NCBI GenBank assembly: GCA_026023565.1
Contig: JAPETS010000040.1
Span: forward strand, 62,001 to 126,000
Length of the DNA stretch: 64,000 nucleotides
Reading direction: 5' to 3'
Origin: Cirrosporium novae-zelandiae
Lineage: Eukaryota
Each line of letters begins with the position of its first letter. Within the stretch, counting starts at the first letter, position 1. Positions 1,217-28,774 of this stretch are shown here, in pieces. Both the position numbers and the translations under genes were made by a program. The notes beneath the pieces were generated by a model. That model did no database searches, was not told where the DNA came from, and saw only the letters and a program-made list of their open reading frames with translations.

Positions 1217-1567
1217 TTACAAACAAACACCATTAAAGTCGAGCCGATTCTTGTTAATAAAATCACGTCCCAACATCATGTCACATAGAAGGTCCTTCAC
1301 AACATAGAATTTGACATCGACATAAGTCTTGCGCAGTTGGCTAGTAGTAGTCCACTGCGGCCTGACGATCTCATTCAATATTTGTCTCCCCCCTGATAGT
1401 CCAACCACAGTGAGACTTTCAGGTTTAGATAGATGCTCTACCTCGAGACCTAAGGCTTCCACGATAGATAAACTAATTAAATTGTAATTTAAGCCGGAGT
1501 CTAGGTTAGCCTGAACGAGATTGTAAGTGGATTCCTTTTGGTTCCTATATTCGCCTGGGTTATAAAA
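1217..1567 (-). CDS. Retropepsin-like aspartic protease domain in the -1 frame relative to the upstream zinc-finger ORF
   Basis: Open frame 1567-1217 translates FYNPGEYRNQKESTYNLVQANLDSGLNYNLISLSIVEALGL...VVGLSGG...FYVVKDLLCDMMLGRDFI: D-S-G catalytic motif, N-x-I-S, flap and C-terminal LGRDF motif; no ATG upstream of the DSG motif. Confidence 0.75.
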   Translation of the reverse strand, partial: FYNPGEYRNQKESTYNLVQANLDSGLNYNLISLSIVEALGLEVEHLSKPESLTVVGLSGGRQILNEIVRPQWTTTSQLRKTYVDVKFYVVKDLLCDMMLGRDFINKNRLDFNGVCL

Positions 1568-3220
1568 TTATTATCTAGCCCATCTGAATTACCACCTTCA
1601 GGCAGCACTTCAGAACTGTCGGAGCTATATTCGACATCAGAATTCATTTCCTGAGGGAGAGTAGCGAGAGCGATTTCCTCCATATGTCGACCGAGGTGGG
1701 TTTTAAAGGCCCTCTCTGTGGGACCTGGGTTCTTGAGGCACAGAGGGCATTTCAAACTGCTCGCTGGTTTTGTTGGCTCTCTTTTTGCAGCATTGGTTGC
1801 GCTCTGGAAGTTTGGCTGCAGAAATGTAAATTTTGCCTCGTGCTTTTGTTGGAGATGATCTTCCCACTCAGTTGAGGATGGAAGTTTGGCGTCACACTCA
1901 GGACATTGCCAATATATATCTATATGATGATGATTAAATTCATGCTCCGCCCATTGTTTGCGGGTTGGGAATGTTACTAGCTCGGACTCGCAGTCTGAAA
2001 TTGTGCATATATAAGGTTGAAGATCAGCAAATATATGCATTCTAAACTTGTTAGCCTTAAGCTAAACCAGGTTTCAATATGAAATAGGGTACTCACTTCC
2101 ATTGTATCCGATCGCTAATATTTGAAAGGGTATGACCACATATATCGCATTTATATGACTCTCCACGGCTAAATTCTTCTGGCAGACGAGGGACGTGTGG
2201 TGTGCCGTTTCTACGCTCCGTAAAACCGGTTTTGAAGGAAGAGTGTGATGCCATGGAGACTGTATATGAAGATTTGGTATGAATCGAAGTATCTATCCCA
2301 GAATCGTGAAAAGTATTTGAAGAGGTAAAAATTTGAGCTATCTCAACAGGATCTTCGAAGGACTCATCAACAAATTCTTGTAGATTTTGTTTGGGTTCTT
2401 TTCGAACCCTGATATGCCGTTGCCAATTGGCTTCTCCTAGACGCTCCACAAGTACGGTGTCTGCGGATGAGAACTTGTCACGAATATTGTGGACATATAT
2501 CTCCGCTGGCTTGGATATCTTGAAGTTGGTAGGGCTGACTACCAATGCTTTTTTTGTGGCGAGCTCTAAGTGATTCGAAACATGTTCAAGGCTAGGTGCT
2601 AACTGCATCAGACAGTCGACATGAATTTTGATGCTTATACCCATGGTTCTATTAATTTCACCCTCATCTTCATCCTCATTTTCATTCTCACTTTCATCCT
2701 CATTTTCATCCTCACCTTCATCCTCATCTTCATCATTTGAATCCAGTTCATTGTCATTTTCATCATCGTAATCATCATACCCTGAGATGACAGAGCGACC
2801 CTTTTCGATTAGCGAATCTAGTTCCGATAAATATGTATTATATTCTGCATGTATAGACTGTGAGATTGCTAAATAGTAGCCTCAGTATATTGCTCCTATG
2901 TAGAAAGAAATGAAGTCTATATTCATGAGCCTGCAAGTGACGAACCTTTCAGAAGAACAATTCCAATCCCGTAGAGATTATCCAAGATATTATCTCTCAA
3001 ATGCTTAGAGTATTGTAGAACCTTGTCCCATTTTCCAGCATCGATACCTTCATGCCAGATGACGAATTTGGTAAAGGATTCTTTCAAATCACCTCTCTTT
3101 AACTTGATAGATTTTGCTGGTGCCGTGTTGGTAAAAATGAGTTTCCATGTTTGCGAGAAGACGTCGAAACAAGCTTGATAGAGCAACTCTACGATACCAG
3201 TCTCGTCATTTAGTATCTCG
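1501..3220 (-). CDS. Fungal C2H2 zinc-finger protein (WKxHIFADLQPYIC type) with helical N-terminus and acidic tract; start codon unresolved
   Basis: ORFs 3186-2923, 2644-2093 and 2040-1501 join through introns 2945-2869 (GTTCGT..TTAG) and 2096-2042 (GTGAGT..GCTAAC..TTAG); motifs CDICGH, WKMHIFADLQPYICTISDC, CPECD..HLQQKH, CPLC..HLGRHMEEIALATLP; no in-frame ATG found at the 5' end. Confidence 0.75.
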
Positions 3221-3543
3221 CCTCATTCAGAGTGGATGGCGTGCCAGGCAATCCAATTCTTTGTTCTGGGTCTTTGCAACCATTTCTCTTCGGTTTTGTT
3301 ATACTGTTTTTATTCGACGTAAGGAATAAGAATGCCAACTGTTCTTAAGATGCACAAAAGTTGAAGTTAACAGAGCGCATTATCTTGCTTAGCTCTGCCC
3401 AGCCTTTCTTGCAAGTATTCTAAAGGCTGGATCTATAATGATTGGTTTATTGTTTCCTGAACCCCGCGTTGGCAGACCACCAAGTGCTGTCTACAAGAAC
3501 CTGATAAAAGTATCATTCTATATTTTTATTTGGCCGATGCTCC

Positions 3544-4821
3544 ATGGCCGCGACAATAGGCATTACAAACGCCCCGAGAATTTTCAAAAAGAAGATTGAG
3601 AAATTTGGAGTCATTCAACAGGCTTCCCAGCTCCTTTATTATGCCCTCGGCCAAGCTTGTTCAAGGCATCCGGAACATCAGGCTCATTTTAGCTTGCAAC
3701 CAAAATATGATCTTTCAAATGGACTCTCTAGTCCCGCCGTTCGCTTTAGTATAGGCTATACTCATCGAGTGCTTGGTGGATGTAGAAATGAAAGCCAAGA
3801 CAACATTGTTTGGTTTTTCGTTAAGTCGATTATGAATCATGCGAATTTGGGGGATAATGGGAAATCATCCCTCATACTGAACGATCTGACCAAAACACTC
3901 AAGAGGCAAAATGAGAACGCTTTTCCACAGTCTACATCAAAATGCCGTAGAAAGTCTATACAATTTTGTACACCAACAGAACCGCCCACAAGTTCTAAAG
4001 GTCTGGCGGCCTCTAATAGTCTTCCTCTACCAAACTCCGTACTAGACCAAGCGTTACCCGACCTTTGTATGCGGCGAAATTTCTGCAATCAGATACAACA
4101 GTACTGCCATCAGAGCTCAGATTGTTGCATTGGATTGCTAGCGAAGACAAACAATTGCCAGCACCTAGTATACTCTGTAGCACAGCGAGACGGACAGTCC
4201 TCTGATTCGACGTCATCTCTCATCTCATTTATATGCGATAGAGTAAGGACTAGTGGGCTCTCAATATTCGAACGATTACACATTGCGAAACTTCTAGCAA
4301 TGACAGTTCTTCAATTCCATGCCACCCCTTGGCTTAAAGAATCTTGGCGTAGTAAGGATATCCTAATGCTGAATATTAATCCTTCACCTACCGTTAAAGT
4401 ATCCCTAACAAATAATTTGCACTTGAATGTTTCTGTCAAAGGTCCTAATAGCGTCATTTCAACAGCGACAACATCATCTTCTAGGACCATCGAACCTAAC
4501 CCACTTTTATTTGGGCTTGGGGTTATTTTCCTTGAATTAGCATATAAGGCCCCTCTGCGAAGCAAGCTGCTTCCAATAGACTTGACAGATGGACGGGAGG
4601 ATTGCTATACGGAATTCCATATGGCTAAAAGATTGAGTAAGTTCGGGAGTACAGATATGGGTTTAAATTATAACAACATTGTGAGGAAATGCTTGTCTTG
4701 TGACCTTGGCCATGGAGATGATCTTAACCATCCCGAACTTCAAGCGGCATTCTATAGAGACGTTATATGTGAACTTGGGAGTCTGGAAGAGAGTCTTGAA
4801 AAATTGGGACTAGGTGACTGA
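3544..4821 (+). CDS. DUF7580-like (kinase-like C-lobe) fungal protein, probably N-terminally truncated
   Basis: 425-aa ORF with ERLHIAKLLAMTVLQFHATPWLKESWRSKDI, LFGLGVIFLELAY, MGLNYNNIVRKCLSCD, LQAAFYRDVICEL. Confidence 0.75.
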   Translation: MAATIGITNAPRIFKKKIEKFGVIQQASQLLYYALGQACSRHPEHQAHFSLQPKYDLSNGLSSPAVRFSIGYTHRVLGGCRNESQDNIVWFFVKSIMNHANLGDNGKSSLILNDLTKTLKRQNENAFPQSTSKCRRKSIQFCTPTEPPTSSKGLAASNSLPLPNSVLDQALPDLCMRRNFCNQIQQYCHQSSDCCIGLLAKTNNCQHLVYSVAQRDGQSSDSTSSLISFICDRVRTSGLSIFERLHIAKLLAMTVLQFHATPWLKESWRSKDILMLNINPSPTVKVSLTNNLHLNVSVKGPNSVISTATTSSSRTIEPNPLLFGLGVIFLELAYKAPLRSKLLPIDLTDGREDCYTEFHMAKRLSKFGSTDMGLNYNNIVRKCLSCDLGHGDDLNHPELQAAFYRDVICELGSLEESLEKLGLGD

Positions 4822-6073: not shown

Positions 6074-6383
6074 ATGGTTACCGTTGCTCAACACCCTTCT
6101 TCCGCTCTCCGTGGTGCCTGGGGCCCTCGCGTCAAGGCCATTGGCGTCATCGGTGTCGTTGCATTCGGAATCTACAAATCCGTATGTCCTCACCTCTCTT
6201 CTCTCCTCTCTCCTCTTTTCTATCCACCTTAATTGGACTACCGCTACCAAAAAAAGAAATCAAGCGCTAACATTAAAATAGCTCAACTACGAACTCAGTC
6301 ACATCAATGACCGCTTCGAGGCCCGCAACAGACAGCTGGCTAAATATGAAGTCAAGCCTGAGGTCTTGCCTAAAACTGCATAA
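6074..6383 (+). CDS. 69-aa single-pass membrane microprotein (2 exons)
   Basis: CAAAATGG start; exon 6074-6181, intron 6182-6281 (GTATGT..GCTAAC..TAG), exon 6282-6383; MVTVAQHPSSALRGAWGPRVKAIGVIGVVAFGIYKS|LNYELSHINDRFEARNRQLAKYEVKPEVLPKTA; C/T-ending codon bias. Confidence 0.75.
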
Positions 6384-8030
6384 ATCCTAATACGGCGATA
6401 ACACCTTATCATCATCATAATTTATCATGAAGGAGTTTTAGCTGGAGTGTGAATTTCGTTGGTTTTTTCATTGGCTTTTAAGTAGAAGAGGAGGAGGAGG
6501 AAGTGGAGGTGTGATGGGTGGATGAATGGATGGATGGATGATTCAACTGGCAAACTGATCTGAAACGACAGCTTGTTCAGGAGGGGCTCATGCATACATA
6601 CACACACGCATCATTTGGTTCGATCGATCGATCGATTGCTTGAATACCCAGTCCGCAGTTTTCATTCCTGCACATATTATATACCACATTTCATTTTTTT
6701 TTAACTTTAGTGATGGAAAGAGAGGCAGGAGGGAGGGGGAAAGGACATCTTTTGCTGTACAGACAGATACATAGATGGACTTGATATGGGAATCCATCAG
6801 CCCTTATGAAAATATAACCCTTTACTTGCCTTCCAATGACGGGAACGGGACACACACATACACACGAAAGGGAAGGGAGAGGACTGACTTCTTGCTGTGC
6901 ATATGTATATGGATTTGGATAGTATTTGAAAATACTAAAAAAAAACTGTTTAAAGTCTTCATTTTTTTCTAAGCCCCCTTCTAGAAGAGAGTCCTTTTAG
7001 TTCTCTAGAGAATTATTATTATTATTATTATTATTATTATGTATGTGCTTTTTCTTTTGGGGGTTATGGTTAGGGTGGATGGATGGATATCCTCTACCTG
7101 CCTACCTAGGTGGGTGGGTATTTAACCTACAAGATCATCATCATCATTATCATGTTGTGAATGAATAAAGTTCGATCGGAATCCCATGCCTCCTTAACCT
7201 TCTTAACCCTCTTAACGCCTGTTGCAATATGCTTGCTACACTATTCTACCCAAGTACACTCAGTAGCTATCTATATCCAGGGCCAACTATATGTCCAAGC
7301 TTCTTTTATACCCATACTCCATATTCACACACCTCATACCACTCATACCCCGAAGCATGCATGCACGATATGATACGACATACTGATAACGACATAACGA
7401 CTACGACTACTTCGAAGGCGTGATCAGTGTGATCGGGTCTTGAATTAAACATTATACAGTCGGTAGCTTAATTTGGCTTTTTTTGTTCCATTGTCATTGG
7501 CAATATCATACCCAACTACCCAACTACCTATCTCATACAAGTAGCTTAACTTAACTAGGCTTTTGTGTTCCATATTATCATTATCGTTAAGATCATATCC
7601 ACCGCGCCCTCCATCCATTCAGGGGAAGAAGGAGGTGTCTTATCTATCTTAACTACCAATCTATAGTCCCATTTATATCTATATCCATATCCACATCTAC
7701 GTTCGCATTCGCATTCGTTTTCGCATTCCGTTGAGTTATCAAAAGGTGACTGGGTTTATTGAATAACCTAATATTGCATGATGCAGTGCAGTGCAGTGCG
7801 TAACTCAACAACACATTCTACTTGTTCTCCCCCCGAGAGCTGAAACGAGACGAGATGGAGAAAATAGAGGGAAAAAAAAAAAACAGAAAGCATATCCTAC
7901 CACCTCACTTCATCTACTAACCTCTAACCTCCTCCTAACTCCGTCCCAATTCTAACCTTTCCTTTCTTTTAAAAACATACCCATATTTTTCTCTTTCCTC
8001 ATCTTCTTTTATATATAATCTATTCATTTA

Positions 8031-8034
<4 letters not shown>

Positions 8035-8064
<30 letters not shown>

Positions 8065-8149
8065 CATACATACATACATACATACATACATACATACATA
8101 CATACATACATACATACATACATACATACATACATACATACATACATAC
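8035..8149. repeat. (TACA)n microsatellite, about 28 units
   Basis: Perfect tetranucleotide run. Confidence 0.98.
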
Positions 8150-10159
8150 TTTTACCTTTCGTAAACGATAGAATATAGATGTTTTGGGAGTCTAAGCTAG
8201 ATGAGGTGTTGCGGTTGTGGTTATGTTGGGAGTACCTGTGCTTGTGAAGTGGGATGGATAGGTTTGGTGGCAGGTGCGTGGATGGGGAGAGATGGGTATT
8301 AAGGGGGAGGAGGTCTCTCTGTTTGGAAGGGAAAGGGATTATGGCTGTGGGCTGTGATTGTTGGGAGGGGGAAAGGGAGAAGGGTTATATAGTTAGTTAT
8401 TTTGGAAGCTCTCTGTTTGTAAAGGAGAGGAGATGTGTAATGAAAATAGTTTAGACGGGGGAGGGGAAGGCTGGACTTGCGATTGAGAAGCGATGTTGTA
8501 CTCTATATATATATACTAGGCAGATATCTGTAGAAAGAGTTGTGGTTAGTTTGCCATAGATAATGATTGATGGAGTAAGTTAGTGTTGTGGAGAATGGGA
8601 GATGGAGACGGGGACAGTCCTTTTGGACTTATCCTCATTTTTGCCTTGGGTGAATTCCTAAGCGTGGTAGTGAGGATAGGTTATAGGGAAGGTTATGTTA
8701 TTGGTTCATGGTAAATGCGCTGCGATCTGGAGTTCTTGGGATTGCTTGAATTGGTTTGGTATTGAATGAGGTCAAGGTTTGATATATAAAAGTGGAGTAG
8801 AATAGATAGAGAACACTGATACCAGTGTGACCAATCACTAGCGCTTTTGGGAATTAAACCTAACCTAGTATTTATGGCATCCGACAGGTAGTAAACAAAG
8901 GTAGGTGATGTAATGATAGGGTAATTCAGATTCTAGAGATGAATCAAAAGTAGCCGCCAGCGTGTAGTCTCTTATCCTGCTCAACAACTCGGCTCAAAAA
9001 TAAAGGTAAACTGTAGCGACTATTTAAGAAAAGAGACCATTAAGGTATGGAGGCAATAAACATACTAGCCCCAGTGGGCAAGACTTTGTGTTATATTAGG
9101 TATTAAGTAAGCATACAGGCAAAACAATCCATGTTCATACATTTAGTATATCATGATCGCTAGGATTGACATTGATTATATAAACCCTCAGATTAGCTCT
9201 CTGGTTCACAGCGACAACTCAGCGTTCCTTGGATGGTCGGCTGGCTATCTCCAAATTTGGCTTTTGACACTAATCCTCATCATCGGGTCTCACAAAGGGG
9301 GGGGAAATGCTAAAGCGGACTGGACATATGAACCTGCAGATGACACGTTAGTGCATGTTAGTAAAGATAGATAGAGTCAGAACTCACGGAGCACTTGCTC
9401 AGATTGAAAACTATATGTATTGCTCATCATAGGGCTGGAGATAAGTCTCATAATCCGTCGACTTGTTTGGTCCATAGGTTTGACAAAGCAATACCGGAAT
9501 ACCATTAGCACCAGGTTTAGAGAATTTATCACCAGGGGGGGACCCTCCGGGCAAATGTGTCGTCACTGCTTGCTAACACGCTCTAATCTAGCCGCAGGCG
9601 AAGTGAAGGGTTATCTCAGATTTCTGTTCCAGTTATCAGTCTTCGATGAACGCCTTGAAAGGTCGAACAGCTCGTGGAAGCTCTGGTGATATTCATCTTC
9701 ACAGAAACCACATCTAAAGAGAAGAGATAATATTAGTTTTTAATTCAAGCTCAATTCAAAGAGTGTGGGGTGTTTGGAGGGGGGAAATTATCTCTTACCA
9801 TTTGCCTGTATGTTGTTGAGAGGAAGAGGTTGAGAGACGCGACGGAAATCAATTTATGGGGTCGCGAAAATCGCGGAACAACGTCATAGCGCCGATAAAT
9901 TTTGAGGCTCCAACACCACTCACAGAAAAACACATTGTCCCTGTAAACAGCCTATATTGTACCAAAGTCTCTTTAGTTAAAAAAGCCGATTACGGCACAA
10001 TGGCCCACTTTCAACAATTAACTCAAAATGAAGTGGCAAGACCCAGACTCTGAGTGGGAAAGCGATTTTGGTTACGATCCACCAACACCACCCCGAGTAG
10101 AGCGTCGGGGAAAAGAGAAGGAGAAAGAAAAGGGAAAAGAAAAACAAAAGCCAGAAACA

Positions 10160-11761
10160 ATGTCTTCATGGCTTGAACGACAAGCCACCTCGCACAATGC
10201 ACAGCTTGCACTAACCGCTGTTGCCTCTGGTGCGCTGGTTGCGGGCGCTATATTTGGCTTTCAATCTATTAGGAGGCAAGCCGCTGTGGAAGAATTAAAA
10301 GCTTCAATACCAGATCTTGATGAACATTACCAGGCGGAGAAGGCATGTCCTCTGTGACTATATAGATAAAATAGGCTGACCAGTGCGAGTGAAGCTCACA
10401 GAATATGGAACTGCTTCTCCAGTCCCATTGTCACCTAGAGAAAATGGGAGAAGTACTCTCGCCTTAAGAGCGAAGCAGGGTGACTACGATAATGGTAAGT
10501 CAGACAGTCGCCGCTTAAATTATTCTAATGCGTTTCAGATCTTATACATGAACAACTTGCCCGTAACAAGGTCTTCCTGACCGATGAAGGCCTTGCAAAA
10601 CTCCGATCCTCCTTCGTCATAGTGGTCGGCTGCGGTGGGGTTGGATCTCATGCTACAGCAGCCCTTGCCCGGTCGGGGGTCTCAAAGATACGTCTCATAG
10701 ACTTTGATCAAGTAACACTTTCATCCCTCAATCGCCATGCTCTTGCAACCTTGGCCGATGTTGGAACACCCAAGGTTCACTGCATAAGAAAGCACATGGA
10801 GCAAATAGTCCCTTGGGTACATTTTGATTGCCGTAACGAGCTCTTCAGCGAGGATGTTGCTGCCACGCAACTCGAGGCTTGGGATGGAAAGAAACCCGAT
10901 TTCATCGTCGATGCAATTGACAATATTGAAAGCAAGGTTGCCCTGCTCCACTACTGTTATACGAATTCCTTACCTGTTATCTCGTCCATGGGTGCTGGCT
11001 GTAAATCGGATCCTACACGTATCTTCGTTGGTGATATCTCCGCAAGTATAGAGGATCCTTTATCAAGAAGCGTCCGGGTAAGGTTAAGGCAAAAAGGAAT
11101 TACTAAAGGTATCCCTGTTGTGTTTTCTACAGAGAAGCCTGGTCCGGGGAAAGCACAGCTTATGCCTCTGGCGGATGAAGAGTTCGAGAAAGGGGAGGTT
11201 GGCGAGTTAGGCGTTCTGCCTGACTTCAGAGTTCGGATCCTACCTGTGCTAGGTACAATGCCAGCTGTCTTTGGCTATTCTGTAGCCAATCACGTCATCA
11301 TGGAAATCACTGGCTACCCGCATGAATATCTACCTAGCAAAGGTCGAGAAAAGATGTACGATGGAATTCTAGCAAATCTACAAGGCATCGAAGAACGATT
11401 AGCTAGATGGGCTGGTGAAGATGCCCTCGGGCTCCGTATTCCTGTGAATAAAAATGATGTAGGCTATCTGGTCGAAGAGGTCTATAAGGGAAAAAGTGTG
11501 GTAACTAGTCTCCCTACTCGACTAGTTTTGATTCGCTGGGAAGCATCCAGTGACTACACTCCAGACCAGCGATGGGATGGTCAAAAGGTTGCCAAACTAA
11601 ATCTAAACGATTTGGTGGTAATGACAAAGGATGAGGCGGTAAAACATGAGACGCTTGTTCTCAAGGAAAAGAAGTCCGCTGAAGAGGTATATGGTTCCGA
11701 GGTTGTGGAATTGGTCAAACGGAGAATGAAGGAGGAGGAAGTGTATGGAAGATACAGATAA
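10160..11761 (+). CDS. TCD2: tRNA threonylcarbamoyladenosine dehydratase (Tcd1/Tcd2, ThiF/E1-like family)
   Basis: MSSWLERQ..TM helix; introns 10343-10394 (GC-AG) and 10495-10538; EQLARNKVFL, VVGCGGVGSH, DFDQVTLSSLNRH, SSMGAGCKSDPTR, GIPVVFSTEKP; in-frame upstream ATG at 10028; TCD1 vs TCD2 not distinguishable. Confidence 0.9.
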
Positions 11762-26010: not shown

Positions 26011-26377
26011 GAGTATTATTAGTATTATTAGTACTCTGTAGTATTAATGCAGATGAAATAGTTGAATTTCTTGAATTTATTCTTCAACATCTCCTTCTCT
26101 TTTATCTATCTACCTAGGTACTTTTGTTGTTGAGACAGAAGCGAATTGCGACCGGCCAACTAAAAGCGGCCGTGTACCATAACAACAACAGAGAGGATTA
26201 CTTGGATTACATTAATTATCTGGTTTTCTCTTGTGAACCTTTTTGGTCCGCTCTTCCGCGCGCTGTTCAACTCTCCTTTCCTCGAGGTCCGCCCTCGTCG
26301 ACATTGTCGACCTGGAAGTCACAGAGGAAAATGTTCCGGAGAAGAAGATTAGCCCAATAGCCTTTCTGGGAGGTGCG

Positions 26378-28774
26378 ATGGGAGTGCTTCAGATAGCCAG
26401 AGCGAAGCTGCTCCGAAGATCATCTCACTACGACACCAGTCCCACTCCTTCCCTTCTACACTTCAAGAGAAGACATTCCAACCATAACTCGTCCAAAGTC
26501 GATATTGGTGTTGGTGATTCTTCCTTAGTGGATGATGGCAAGCTTCCCCAGGCCGAAACACAGGAGCTAGACACCGAGGAATCCGTCTTTCCTCCTACGG
26601 ATAAGCCCGCAACCTCTAAATCTTCAGAAATAAATATTGAAGACGACGACTCTGAACACTCCCCTACATCCAGTACCCCGCCTTCACCTATTCATTCTCA
26701 GTCTCCTGCTGAACCCGAACCCGTATCCGTACCCGTACCTGTACCTGTACTGGAACCTGCTCCACTCATCGACGAAGGTGTTCCTGATCTCACCGTTCAA
26801 GAACCGACGCCCGCTGCTGCTGCTCTAGATATAGAAGATAGACCCTCGGCAGAGCTCCCCAATATCGACAAGGGAATCACCCTACCATCCCCCATTACAA
26901 CTCCTAAAAGACCTACGATTGGTTTTCGACGCCAGTCTCTAGTACCAGCCTCTCAACATCGATTAATTAAAACACTTCTGGCGGGTGATAGGGAAATAGG
27001 ATCTCGCAAAACCTCGCTCGACTTTGTCGGCGATACAACCAGCTCGCTGGCAAACATGATAAATAGAAAGATATGGGTGAAAAGGCCGGGGGCCTCTGCT
27101 ACGTTGGTGATGATAAATGAAGATGACCTGGTGGATGACGTGAGGGATGCGATATTAAAGAAATATGCTAATTCTTTGGGTCACAACTTCGATGCACCGG
27201 ATTTGACTCTACGGATTGTACCACGTCAAACACACAGTAACAGTAAGAGTTCTAACGGGGAGCGGATCCTTGGACCAGAGGAGCCAATGACCAGAACATT
27301 GGATGCCTACTATTCTGGAGGCCAGACGGTAGATGAGGCTTTGCTCATTGATATTCCCCAACGGAGGACTCCACGTCCTTCGCCGCGAATCCAACAACAA
27401 ATGCCATATTATTATGAGGAGTCAAGACCTGGCGAGTCGGGGGATTATTTCCCTCTTGTGCCTGTTGGAGGCTCACCGCATGTCGCAAATCTAAGTCTAC
27501 CTCATTCCATGTCCATAGTAAACACAGGACAGCTACCTGCTCTTCCTTCACCTGGAGGTAAAACTTCACGAAAGCAGCGACCACAATACGTTCGTCAACG
27601 AACAGGCTCTCCCACCATTCTCTCCTCTCACCCTCCTCCAAATAGTGGATTATCTCAACAACACTCTTCTCATTCCTCACATTCAAGAATCAACTCTTTT
27701 CATTCAGATACTAAATCCGTCACTGGCGGTCCCCCAGCTCCCCCTCTGCCTACACCTCCAGCACCAGCTGAGCCTTCACCTCGTCCCGTACCTGCTCCAC
27801 CACCAGTACGTACCTCCTCTCCACGACCACAACGTCATCGTTCCGCTGCAAGAAGATACAAGAAATCTGCCGAAACACCTGCCCTTCCTGCTGGCCTTCT
27901 CAATGGCTCTGTACCCCCAATAAATGTCCTCATAGTTGAAGATAACCCCATCAACCTTAAGCTTCTAGAAGCCTTCATGAAACGCTTAAAGGTGCGCTGG
28001 CAAACCGCTATGAACGGCCGAGAAGCAGTAAAGAAATGGCGAGACGGAGGTTTCCACCTTGTTCTTATGGATATCCAACTTCCCATTATGAATGGGCTAC
28101 AGGCTACCAAAGAAATAAGACGGTTAGAACGGTTAAACAATATCGGCGTCTTTTCTTCTAGTGCCAGCAGCACCGCGCCAACAGGAATATTGGATGGGTC
28201 TGTTCCTGAATTGGACGAGGAAGCTGTGGGAGACGATATTTTGGCCGATTTGAACAAATTCAAGAGCCCAGTTATTATCGTTGCTTTAACGGCTAGTTCG
28301 CTCCAGTCAGATAGGCATGAAGCCTTGGCGGCGGGCTGCAATGACTTTTTGACCAAGGTAAATACCATTTTTGTCTTCTGCATCCATCTACTATCGGCCT
28401 TTTCTAGCTCTTGACGTGTTTCTTTGACTAATTTTATATTATAGCCCGTCAACTTCCCCTGGCTCGAACGTAAAGTTATGGAATGGGGATGCATGCAAGC
28501 CCTTATCGACTTTGATGGCTGGCGCAAATGGAAGGACTTTTCGACCCCTGCTACGGGTTCCATTAAAGATGGATCTTCGACCGCCAAGCCCAAATCAAAA
28601 CTATCCAACACAACAAAACCCGAAAAAGGAGAGGCTACGAATGGTGTTGGAGCAGCAGGACCAAGCAATGGTGATAAGAAAAGACCCAAGCCGAGATGGG
28701 AGAATCTTAGTTTGAGTAGTAGGAGTGGAAGTGGTAGTGATGGAATGAATGAAGCTGGCAGCGGTAGTACTTGA
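26378..28774 (+). CDS. SSK1: Two-component response regulator Ssk1 (HOG pathway)
   Basis: IWVKRPGASATLV, VPPINVLIVEDNPIN, FHLVLMDIQLP, IIVALTAS, GCNDFLTK|PVNFPWLERKVMEWGCMQALIDFDGWRKWK; intron 28358-28444. Confidence 0.95.

Follow-up and report, generated by a model that had tools for sequence, protein, structure and literature searches.

A decayed head-to-head gene pair of Cirrosporium novae-zelandiae as a probable member of a fungal family of putative decoy-sensor and executor modules

A 64,000-nucleotide stretch of the genome of Cirrosporium novae-zelandiae (GenBank assembly GCA_026023565.1, contig JAPETS010000040.1, positions 62,001 to 126,000 of the forward strand), hereafter the window, contains two genes diverging from a short spacer at positions 1217 to 4821. 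The + strand gene encodes a DUF7580 protein, here termed the executor; the - strand gene encodes a zinc-finger protein with a retropepsin-like end, here termed the partner. [quoted passage not shown] Comparison of the sequences shows the linkage of the two genes, their joint divergence, the swapping of domains and the loss of catalytic residues. A first-pass annotation, made from the window alone, had suspected an undescribed two-gene module with a cell-death-type executor, a suspicion which the linkage, the paralogue expansion and the frequent decay of the family support.

The head-to-head pairing is real, recurrent and beyond chance. Within the same genome six of the ten DUF7580 matches (on contigs C64, C52, C76, C66, C118 and C70) face a partner gene, the paralogue counts for this genome being lower bounds. 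Of the 80 metagenome loci fetched, 27 were excluded, either because no head was detected or because less than 800 bp of upstream sequence was available. Among the 53 assessable loci the partner lies upstream on the opposite strand in 50, typically 0.2-0.7 kb away; counted per cluster at 70% identity, 29 of 30 clusters are paired, and there is no partner match elsewhere within the 53 loci. A partner profile seeded without these loci finds the partner in 33 of the 53, the remaining paired loci having fingerless or cut partners that were recovered by an N-terminal profile. The same adjacency is seen in the locus tags of two named genomes (PVAG01_10306/10307 and Q9195_009577/009578). Thus the recurring divergent linkage for which the first-pass annotation had suggested looking is present, and the homologues are neither adjacent merely at chance level nor single-copy housekeeping genes. 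For 34 pairs the executor tree and the partner tree are congruent (Mantel rho 0.84, 0 of 5000 permutations), although common descent by itself accounts for part of this congruence. The five other pairs of this genome group by themselves in each of the two trees, with the window pair placed elsewhere, so that they were duplicated as pairs. Just beyond the C118 pair, at L025:7258-8990, there are open reading frames (ORFs) which by eye are NACHT-like.

The executor gene of the window is a remnant, in which a single + strand ORF (3544-4821, 425 residues; Pfam DUF7580, E 1.4e-17) encodes the DUF7580 domain preceded by a helix and beta-sheet segment. Its AlphaFold model (predicted local distance difference test score, pLDDT, 78; predicted template modelling score, pTM, 0.80) has a kinase fold spanning residues 26-425. 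All eight of the Protein Data Bank (PDB) matches at E<=0.001 are kinases, as are all 50 of the matches listed in the VIA structure search (Z 7.8-9.6). The likeness to MLKL (4btf; Z 8.4, root-mean-square deviation 4.8, 181 residues aligned) is level with that to many other kinases, and AtMLKL3 (Z 8.6, deviation 6.5, 212 aligned) is likewise not ahead of them. In an alignment of 49 DUF7580 sequences W-L-K-G-S-W-R-S-x-D occupies the site expected for HRD..N, and P-H/Y-L-N-V that expected for DFG, on an inferred mapping of the motifs; by the column counts over these 49 homologues the corresponding degenerate catalytic-loop region of the window protein (residues 256-274, positions 4309-4365, + strand) has neither HRD nor the catalytic Asp/Asn pattern. 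Since the family lacks the HRD, catalytic Asn and DFG pattern, the DUF7580 protein is, on these inferred motif positions, predicted to be a pseudokinase. The kinase-only structure matches and the alignment thus bear out what had been read from the window sequence, a kinase-like C-lobe without a canonical catalytic loop. Comparison of the DUF7580 profile with a true-kinase profile gave a probability of 2.6%, with 15 columns aligned only.

Full-length relatives of the executor have 560-660 residues and a hydrophobic helix at the start. The first 30 residues of 31 executors have a median Kyte-Doolittle 19-mer value of 1.92, compared with 0.74 for the first 60 residues of 34 partners. For the head, the nearest named cluster in the Atlas is HeLo PF14479 (0.94, 180 of 256 features), and Pfam itself assigns HeLo to two further DUF7580 genes of this genome. 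The executor family would therefore seem to combine a hydrophobic-tipped, HeLo-like head of ~190 residues with a pseudokinase, an architecture like that of MLKL. PDB sequence searches with the head and partner profiles returned coiled-coil and zinc-finger noise only. DUF7580 also occurs in other settings in this genome. Single-exon DUF7580 genes with helical heads and no zinc-finger partner lie at L029:6266-8173 (contig C23, with Pfam HeLo) and L033:3184-4725 (C56). At L034:3837-10000 (C119) a gene with Pfam HeLo and DUF7580 stands head-to-head with a kinase-ankyrin gene, an arrangement that resembles the divergent pskA/ffkA genes of Aspergillus nidulans, as these are described in the available part of PMC4557415, and that may represent another type of MLKL-like pair, one in which a true kinase takes part.

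It is this head that the window gene lacks. The full-length executor profile matches it from position 196 of 603, so that ~190 N-terminal residues of the relatives are missing, and a head profile (the first 200 residues of relatives) has no match anywhere in the 64-kb window, the same profile matching four other paired genes of the genome and most metagenome loci. On comparison with the profiles of relatives, the executor's first exon, its intron and the start of exon 2 appear to have been lost at the spacer, a deletion of roughly 0.6-0.9 kb, which would be why the two ATG codons are only 260 bp apart (3284-3543). The spacer of about 0.3 kb reported in the first-pass annotation is thus accurate as a measurement. 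Of its description of two diverging genes the presence of both stands; the executor is without its head and the spacer has been shortened by deletion.

The partner gene (3283-1217, - strand) has the helical start, the acidic tract, the C2H2-like fingers and the retropepsin domain that had been noted. It also encodes a conserved core, its Cys/His clusters of C2H2 type number four, and the retropepsin-like end has D-S-G, but the parts do not lie in a single clean reading frame. At the damaged 5' end (3223-3283), as judged from the frames and the family profile, the W-I motif conserved in the family (3255-3250) is read in a frame which a TGA closes at 3225-3223, whereas translation from the ATG at 3283 would use another frame. 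The remainder of exon 1 (2946-3222; profile E 8e-20) encodes helices 1-3 of a four-helix bundle, assigned with the model of the homologue P0059, and an L-W-G-type family motif. Intron 1 (2869-2945, 77 nt, GT-AG) is at a position common to relatives. Exon 2 (2097-2868) encodes a helix, the acidic tract (2776-2657), bundle helix 4, the conserved helical core, a Ser-rich linker and the first half of finger 1. Intron 2 (2042-2096, 55 nt, GT-AG) lies inside finger 1, as it does in relatives, and exon 3 (1546-2041) encodes the C2H2-type fingers (Pfam PF26082) and a linker. The tail (1217-1545), with its D-S-G Asp codon at 1501-1499, was assigned from Pfam and paralogue alignment and is out of frame with the fingers. 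It scores 23.3 bits against Asp_protease_2, below the cut-off of 24.3, with four clan profiles just under their cut-offs. Its identity to the two paralogous retropepsin tails that are read in frame on contig C73 is 53% and 46%. Across the border of exon 1 and intron 1, 68 bp (2908-2975) recur at L118:1501-1568 (contig C58) with 91% identity; around that repeat at L118 there is no protein-level match.

The partner has three lesions in total, the premature stop and two apparent frameshifts, one of which severs the retropepsin. The deposited 617-residue partner model, P0057, bridges the damaged places with introns of 43 and 38 nt, neither of which reaches the length of the two clear introns (77 and 55 nt). 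Near 1545 the protease frame is one base off, and two paralogues run continuously into the same domain; a frameshift is more likely here than a 38-nt intron. With a headless executor and three lesions in the partner, the window copy is most probably a non-functional pseudogene pair. Contigs from run X1 agree with the window without insertions or deletions, X1 being possibly the assembly's own source and so not independent. No RNA data set was listed as containing the locus, which has no bearing on whether it is expressed. Repeat-induced point mutation (RIP) was rejected as the cause of decay, the RIP indices being like those of the rest of the window. Evidence for accelerated decay of the remaining ORFs is weak: of 76 conserved columns in the executor 10 are changed, which is joint 4th-worst among 49 sequences, and of 74 in the partner 11 are changed, a middling value among 34.

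Across the family the partner has a bundle of four helices and a conserved core, in most cases with zinc fingers, and an interchangeable tail that copies ordinary proteins of the host; the model of P0059 comprises a bundle of helices, another helical unit and one finger. The best structure matches to the bundle include NLR coiled coils (Sw-5b, Z 8.8; Rx, 8.0), MLKL (7.0) and HET-S (6.0). Foldseek returned no match to the partner model at E<=0.001, and the Atlas no usable match for the partner. The modelled complex of P0049 and P0063, the cognate full-length pair of Phlyctema vagabunda, scores 0.80, compared with 0.01 for the best of three controls; among microbial pairs the complex-score mark used is reached by 51 of 78 that are solved and 2 of 108 that are mismatched, and among eukaryotic pairs by 39 of 65 that are solved and 2 of 126 that are unrelated. 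Runs of this model agree in at least 56% of contacts, with partner pLDDT at least 59. Contacts are predicted from the partner bundle to the executor head (56-94, 183-194) and to the pseudokinase C-lobe (462-469, 602-612, 651-660), among them contacts of partner residues 94-98 and 202-209 with executor residues 605-612. On the partner the modelled interface (71-121, 191-218) is in a region that is retained in the fingerless and shortest partners (profile 36-210). In the model, then, the partner bundle binds across the executor head and C-lobe in the geometry of a clamp. Two observations touch on the origin of the fingers and on gene boundaries in the family. A 1262-residue protein at L024:3876-7661 (C52), whose likeness to the partner family is confined to the finger block, may be the product of the conserved source gene of the fingers; P0071 has an extra finger block (residues 1-400) ahead of the partner sequence, perhaps through a merged gene model.

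The partner tails differ widely in domain type. Pfam matches were found in 38 of the 66 partner-family proteins longer than 500 residues and cover more than 20 domain types, in keeping with the swapping of C-terminal domains for which a check had been suggested. They include Clr5, PHD, Rsc7/Swp82, BAG, SH3, KilA-N, Zn2Cys6, KIX, PPP phosphatase, PAH, PFU, kinase, ankyrin, Myb, HMA (P0157), the EVH1 domain of PP4R3, GATA, RRM, TPR and one NB-ARC. Many bind DNA or chromatin (GATA, Myb, Zn2Cys6, PHD, ARID, KIX and PAH among them); others are SH3, BAG, MIT, TPR and PFU domains or dead enzymes. In fetched loci Myb, GATA, Clr5, EVH1, SH3, BAG, MIT, TPR, KilA-N and Png1 are in one reading frame with partner sequence. 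A second integration site is seen in P0096, where a Zn2Cys6 domain (residues 279-313) is inserted in the acidic linker.

Where the tail derives from a phosphatase or from Png1, the catalytic residues have been lost in all four cases checked. The three PPP-phosphatase tails have G-N-Y-V in place of the G-D-Y/F-V-D-R-G present at all four host-type phosphatase loci, i.e. in each tail Asn replaces the second metal-binding Asp, and the following Arg is gone. In the Png1 tail, which has 68% identity with a host-type Png1, the catalytic Cys is replaced by Ala. One kinase tail has H-Q-N in its catalytic loop. Contigs C35 and C47 have identical phosphatase matches at the same coordinates, suggesting a duplicated contig in the assembly. 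With a narrow, three-sequence profile a retropepsin tail was found in one of 247 partner-family proteins, which is the window gene's own model, together with one weak, motif-degenerate case, and in none of the 80 metagenome loci; it thus appears to be one rare tail among many, incidental to the module. The two in-frame copies on C73 (L022:6520-8036 and L023:2054-3559, about 72.5-79.6 kb, with D-S/T-G), each the tail of a partner-family gene, have no DUF7580 neighbour within the 20 kb fetched. Between them lies a DUF6594 gene (L022:8680-9426), which could be another effector or a substrate.

Comparison of near-identical haplotypes locates the divergence in the same part of the partner. The putative alleles L053 and L055, on metagenome contigs, are about 99% identical across the pair and 68-76% in the tail; at the protein level the tail is 49% identical and the rest 98-99.6%. 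Identity dips at the same place, in or at the end of the tail, between L037 and L038 and between L070 and L072, with little tail dip between L056 and L066 or L038 and L042. All sets compared are 97-100% identical over the pair outside the tail, and their flanks are conserved.

The pattern of decay is also informative. The executor is clearly broken at 11 of the 53 loci, ambiguous at 4 and compatible with being intact at 38. It is broken at all three partnerless loci (two independent events). At the 35 loci that have both an intact-looking executor and the binding part of the partner on the contig, no stop or frameshift was called in that binding part; at L046 a stop further downstream in the partner coexists with an intact executor. 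In small numbers, this would be the pattern predicted for a toxin held by its partner. The window fits the pattern, having a headless executor and a decaying partner.

On the reading proposed here, judged more likely than not, the partner would clamp the executor shut. Binding or modification of the decoy tail by something foreign, whether an effector from a mycoparasite, a bacterium or a virus or what an incompatible allele encodes, would open the clamp, the HeLo-like head would oligomerise in the membrane and the cell would die, as may be expected from HET-S and MLKL biology, in so far as this is covered in the available parts of PMC12881547 and PMC10197012. More tentatively, filamentous ascomycetes might possess a large, NLR-independent class of immune receptors, in which an MLKL-like executor is clamped by a four-helix-bundle sensor with a C-terminal slot for dozens of captured host decoys.

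Several observations weigh against these proposals. In this genome the other four of the ten DUF7580 loci are unpaired, with different architectures (two with Pfam HeLo), and four of the nine other partner-like loci are without an executor. The metagenome loci were sought with two peptide patterns, both taken from a single subfamily; 80 of 107 matches were fetched, and the loci are redundant (44 clusters); the N-terminal partner profile was itself seeded from 14 of these loci. The assignment of the head to HeLo is indirect, Pfam finding HeLo in one of 43 executor heads (E 0.0065) and PigL_N in three, and no HET-S or MLKL chain is among the best 60 of 76 PDB sequence matches to the head. The Z scores for the partner bundle (6.0-8.8) are within the range common for helical bundles. 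Seven of the 44 neighbour pairs taken blind likewise reach the mark for a complex, and the residues of the modelled interface are no more conserved than the rest (0.48 versus 0.51; 0.40 versus 0.41). The proteins in the tail count are for the most part not assigned to a locus, and some may be merged gene models. The window protease retains its catalytic motif, unlike a typical decoy. The coincidence of missing partner and broken executor reflects two events only, in a set where 11 of 53 executors are broken anyway and 4 more are ambiguous.

Of the other explanations, one concerns the purpose of the killing rather than its machinery. The same two proteins might serve self/non-self recognition between strains (het/vic), with unlike alleles or mismatched pairs killing on hyphal fusion and the tails acting as specificity tags. 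The divergence limited to the tail between near-identical haplotypes (three sets), the HeLo-like head and the frequent pseudogenes, which are also a feature of het-Vb in Neurospora according to the available part of PMC9262711, would all be expected. However, the tails copy conserved host hubs with catalytic residues lost, which is better understood as bait than as an arbitrary tag, and the executor and the binding part are nearly invariant between haplotypes (98-99.6%). Allorecognition is thus unlikely to be the principal role, although it is not exclusive of the favoured decoy reading. A non-lethal regulatory function, in which a pseudokinase scaffold anchors or governs a zinc-finger protein whose tails resemble transcription factors, would suit the many DNA- or chromatin-binding tails, and has a precedent in SltB/SltA of Aspergillus nidulans, where a Pezizomycotina pseudokinase-protease acts on a C2H2 factor (PMC4557415, available part). 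Yet sltA and sltB are described there as unlinked and conserved, the pairs studied here vary in copy number and commonly decay, some partners are fingerless, the tails also include SH3, BAG, MIT, TPR, PFU and dead enzymes, and a hydrophobic HeLo-like tip is unnecessary for a scaffold. Such a function is accordingly judged quite unlikely.

Tight linkage, pairwise co-divergence, the broken state of partnerless executors and the toleration of partner-only copies would equally be found in a selfish toxin-antidote element (a spore killer or addiction module), the tail being DNA that was captured and brings the host no adaptive benefit. Nevertheless, catalytic residues have been lost repeatedly from tails that are otherwise well kept, and the allelic divergence is specific to the tail; both imply selection on the tail. 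The flanks are conserved between haplotypes, and there is no RIP signature; a selfish element is therefore very unlikely. The mechanism built on the dimerisation-activated aspartic protease of the first-pass annotation is that the fingers drive dimerisation, activating the retropepsin to cleave the DUF7580 protein and free a toxic part, as the het-Q protease does with its gasdermin. The linkage is indeed real, and D-S-G is intact in the window, as is D-S/T-G in two paralogues. The retropepsin is, however, seldom met in the family (1 of 247 proteins plus the degenerate case, 0 of 80 loci) and is out of frame in the window, the two in-frame copies have no DUF7580 neighbour, and the executor has a kinase fold rather than a gasdermin fold. 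An aspartic protease as working principle is accordingly held to be extremely unlikely, and for the family the model is already largely refuted; het-Q is the wrong model because the executor is MLKL-like, not gasdermin-like.

Returning to the decoy-sensor reading, the plant NLR pairs with integrated decoys, i.e. Pik-1/Pik-2, RRS1/RPS4 and RGA4/RGA5, are an evident parallel. They likewise have divergent sensor and helper genes that co-evolve, and host-like domains on the sensor only, even HMA, which is found here in P0157. The plant proteins are NLRs; the fungal module would work likewise with neither gene an NLR, NB-ARC being present in one of the 66 long partners and NACHT in P0244, and neither in the executors scanned. 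The het-Q locus of Podospora also consists of two adjacent genes, for a gasdermin and a subtilisin. Adjacency and a protease domain are common to it and the window copy; the window executor is not a gasdermin, and the protease beside it is of the aspartic type, seldom occurs in the family and is read here in the wrong frame. Protease-controlled fungal gasdermins are summarised in the available text of PMC12881547. A further parallel is the wheat pair R3NLR/R3AK (bioRxiv 10.64898/2026.08.07.743466, available part), which is head-to-head and has an MLKL-type four-helix-bundle executor and a separate putative sensor; the wheat sensor is an NLR and its function was tested, whereas the fungal partner is as a rule without a nucleotide-binding domain, has swappable tails and is known from sequence and models.

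Among fungal NLRs such pairs are rare. According to the available part of a 2025 survey of Sordariales (PMC12258605), 13 of 225 two-NLR clusters are head-to-head pairs, one with a non-canonical domain, and fungi have not converged on the plant sensor/helper layout among their NLRs. Also comparable are the fungal HeLo/HELL-kinase (MLKL-like) proteins, HET-S and het-Va/het-Vb of Podospora. As covered in the accessible parts of PMC12881547, PMC10197012 and PMC9262711, they have a HeLo-type head with a hydrophobic first helix, to which the HeLo-like head predicted here would correspond, and share two-gene clusters and frequent pseudogenes. These sources ascribe amyloid signalling to HET-S and a methyltransferase with a Tudor reader to het-V, whereas for the module considered here a controlling partner is predicted. 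The 2025 review (PMC12881547) describes HELL domains joined to kinase or pseudokinase domains, and its accessible text does not mention a partner. In Aspergillus nidulans, compared by description only from the available part of PMC4557415, SltA/SltB also unite a Pezizomycotina pseudokinase with a C2H2 protein, and the pseudokinase gene pskA is divergently transcribed from the kinase gene ffkA. What the available part of PMC7849911 says of vic3a of Cryphonectria carries no information on its domains.

The rest of the window provides ordinary context: an MFS transporter (1-606), a small spliced gene (6074-6381), a four-base microsatellite (about 8030-8150) and a ThiF-family gene (10529-11761). 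A response-regulator gene (26237-28414) has two receiver matches and a weak Crinkler N-terminal match (E 0.0024, below the cut-off).

The module is widespread in fungi and apparently undescribed. The partner profile finds 929 clusters (50% identity) at E<=1e-30 and 3658 at 1e-10, the weaker ones including other zinc-finger proteins, and no description of the pair or paper on DUF7580 was found in the literature searched, outside which most subscription papers and supplements fell. The family is a candidate answer to two open points, how HeLo-pseudokinase (MLKL-like) proteins are controlled and whether fungi have decoy-bearing sensor/helper pairs, and a role is thereby offered for two unnamed Pfam families, DUF7580 and PF26082. 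With only two genes and a naturally swappable sensing slot, the system is testable in yeast or a model mould. If the proposal is correct, these pairs would be a fungal counterpart of the integrated-decoy pairs of plants, and their tails would amount to an inventory of fungal proteins attacked by mycoparasites, bacteria or viruses, including PP1-type phosphatases, Png1, PP4R3, chromatin readers, and GATA and Myb factors.

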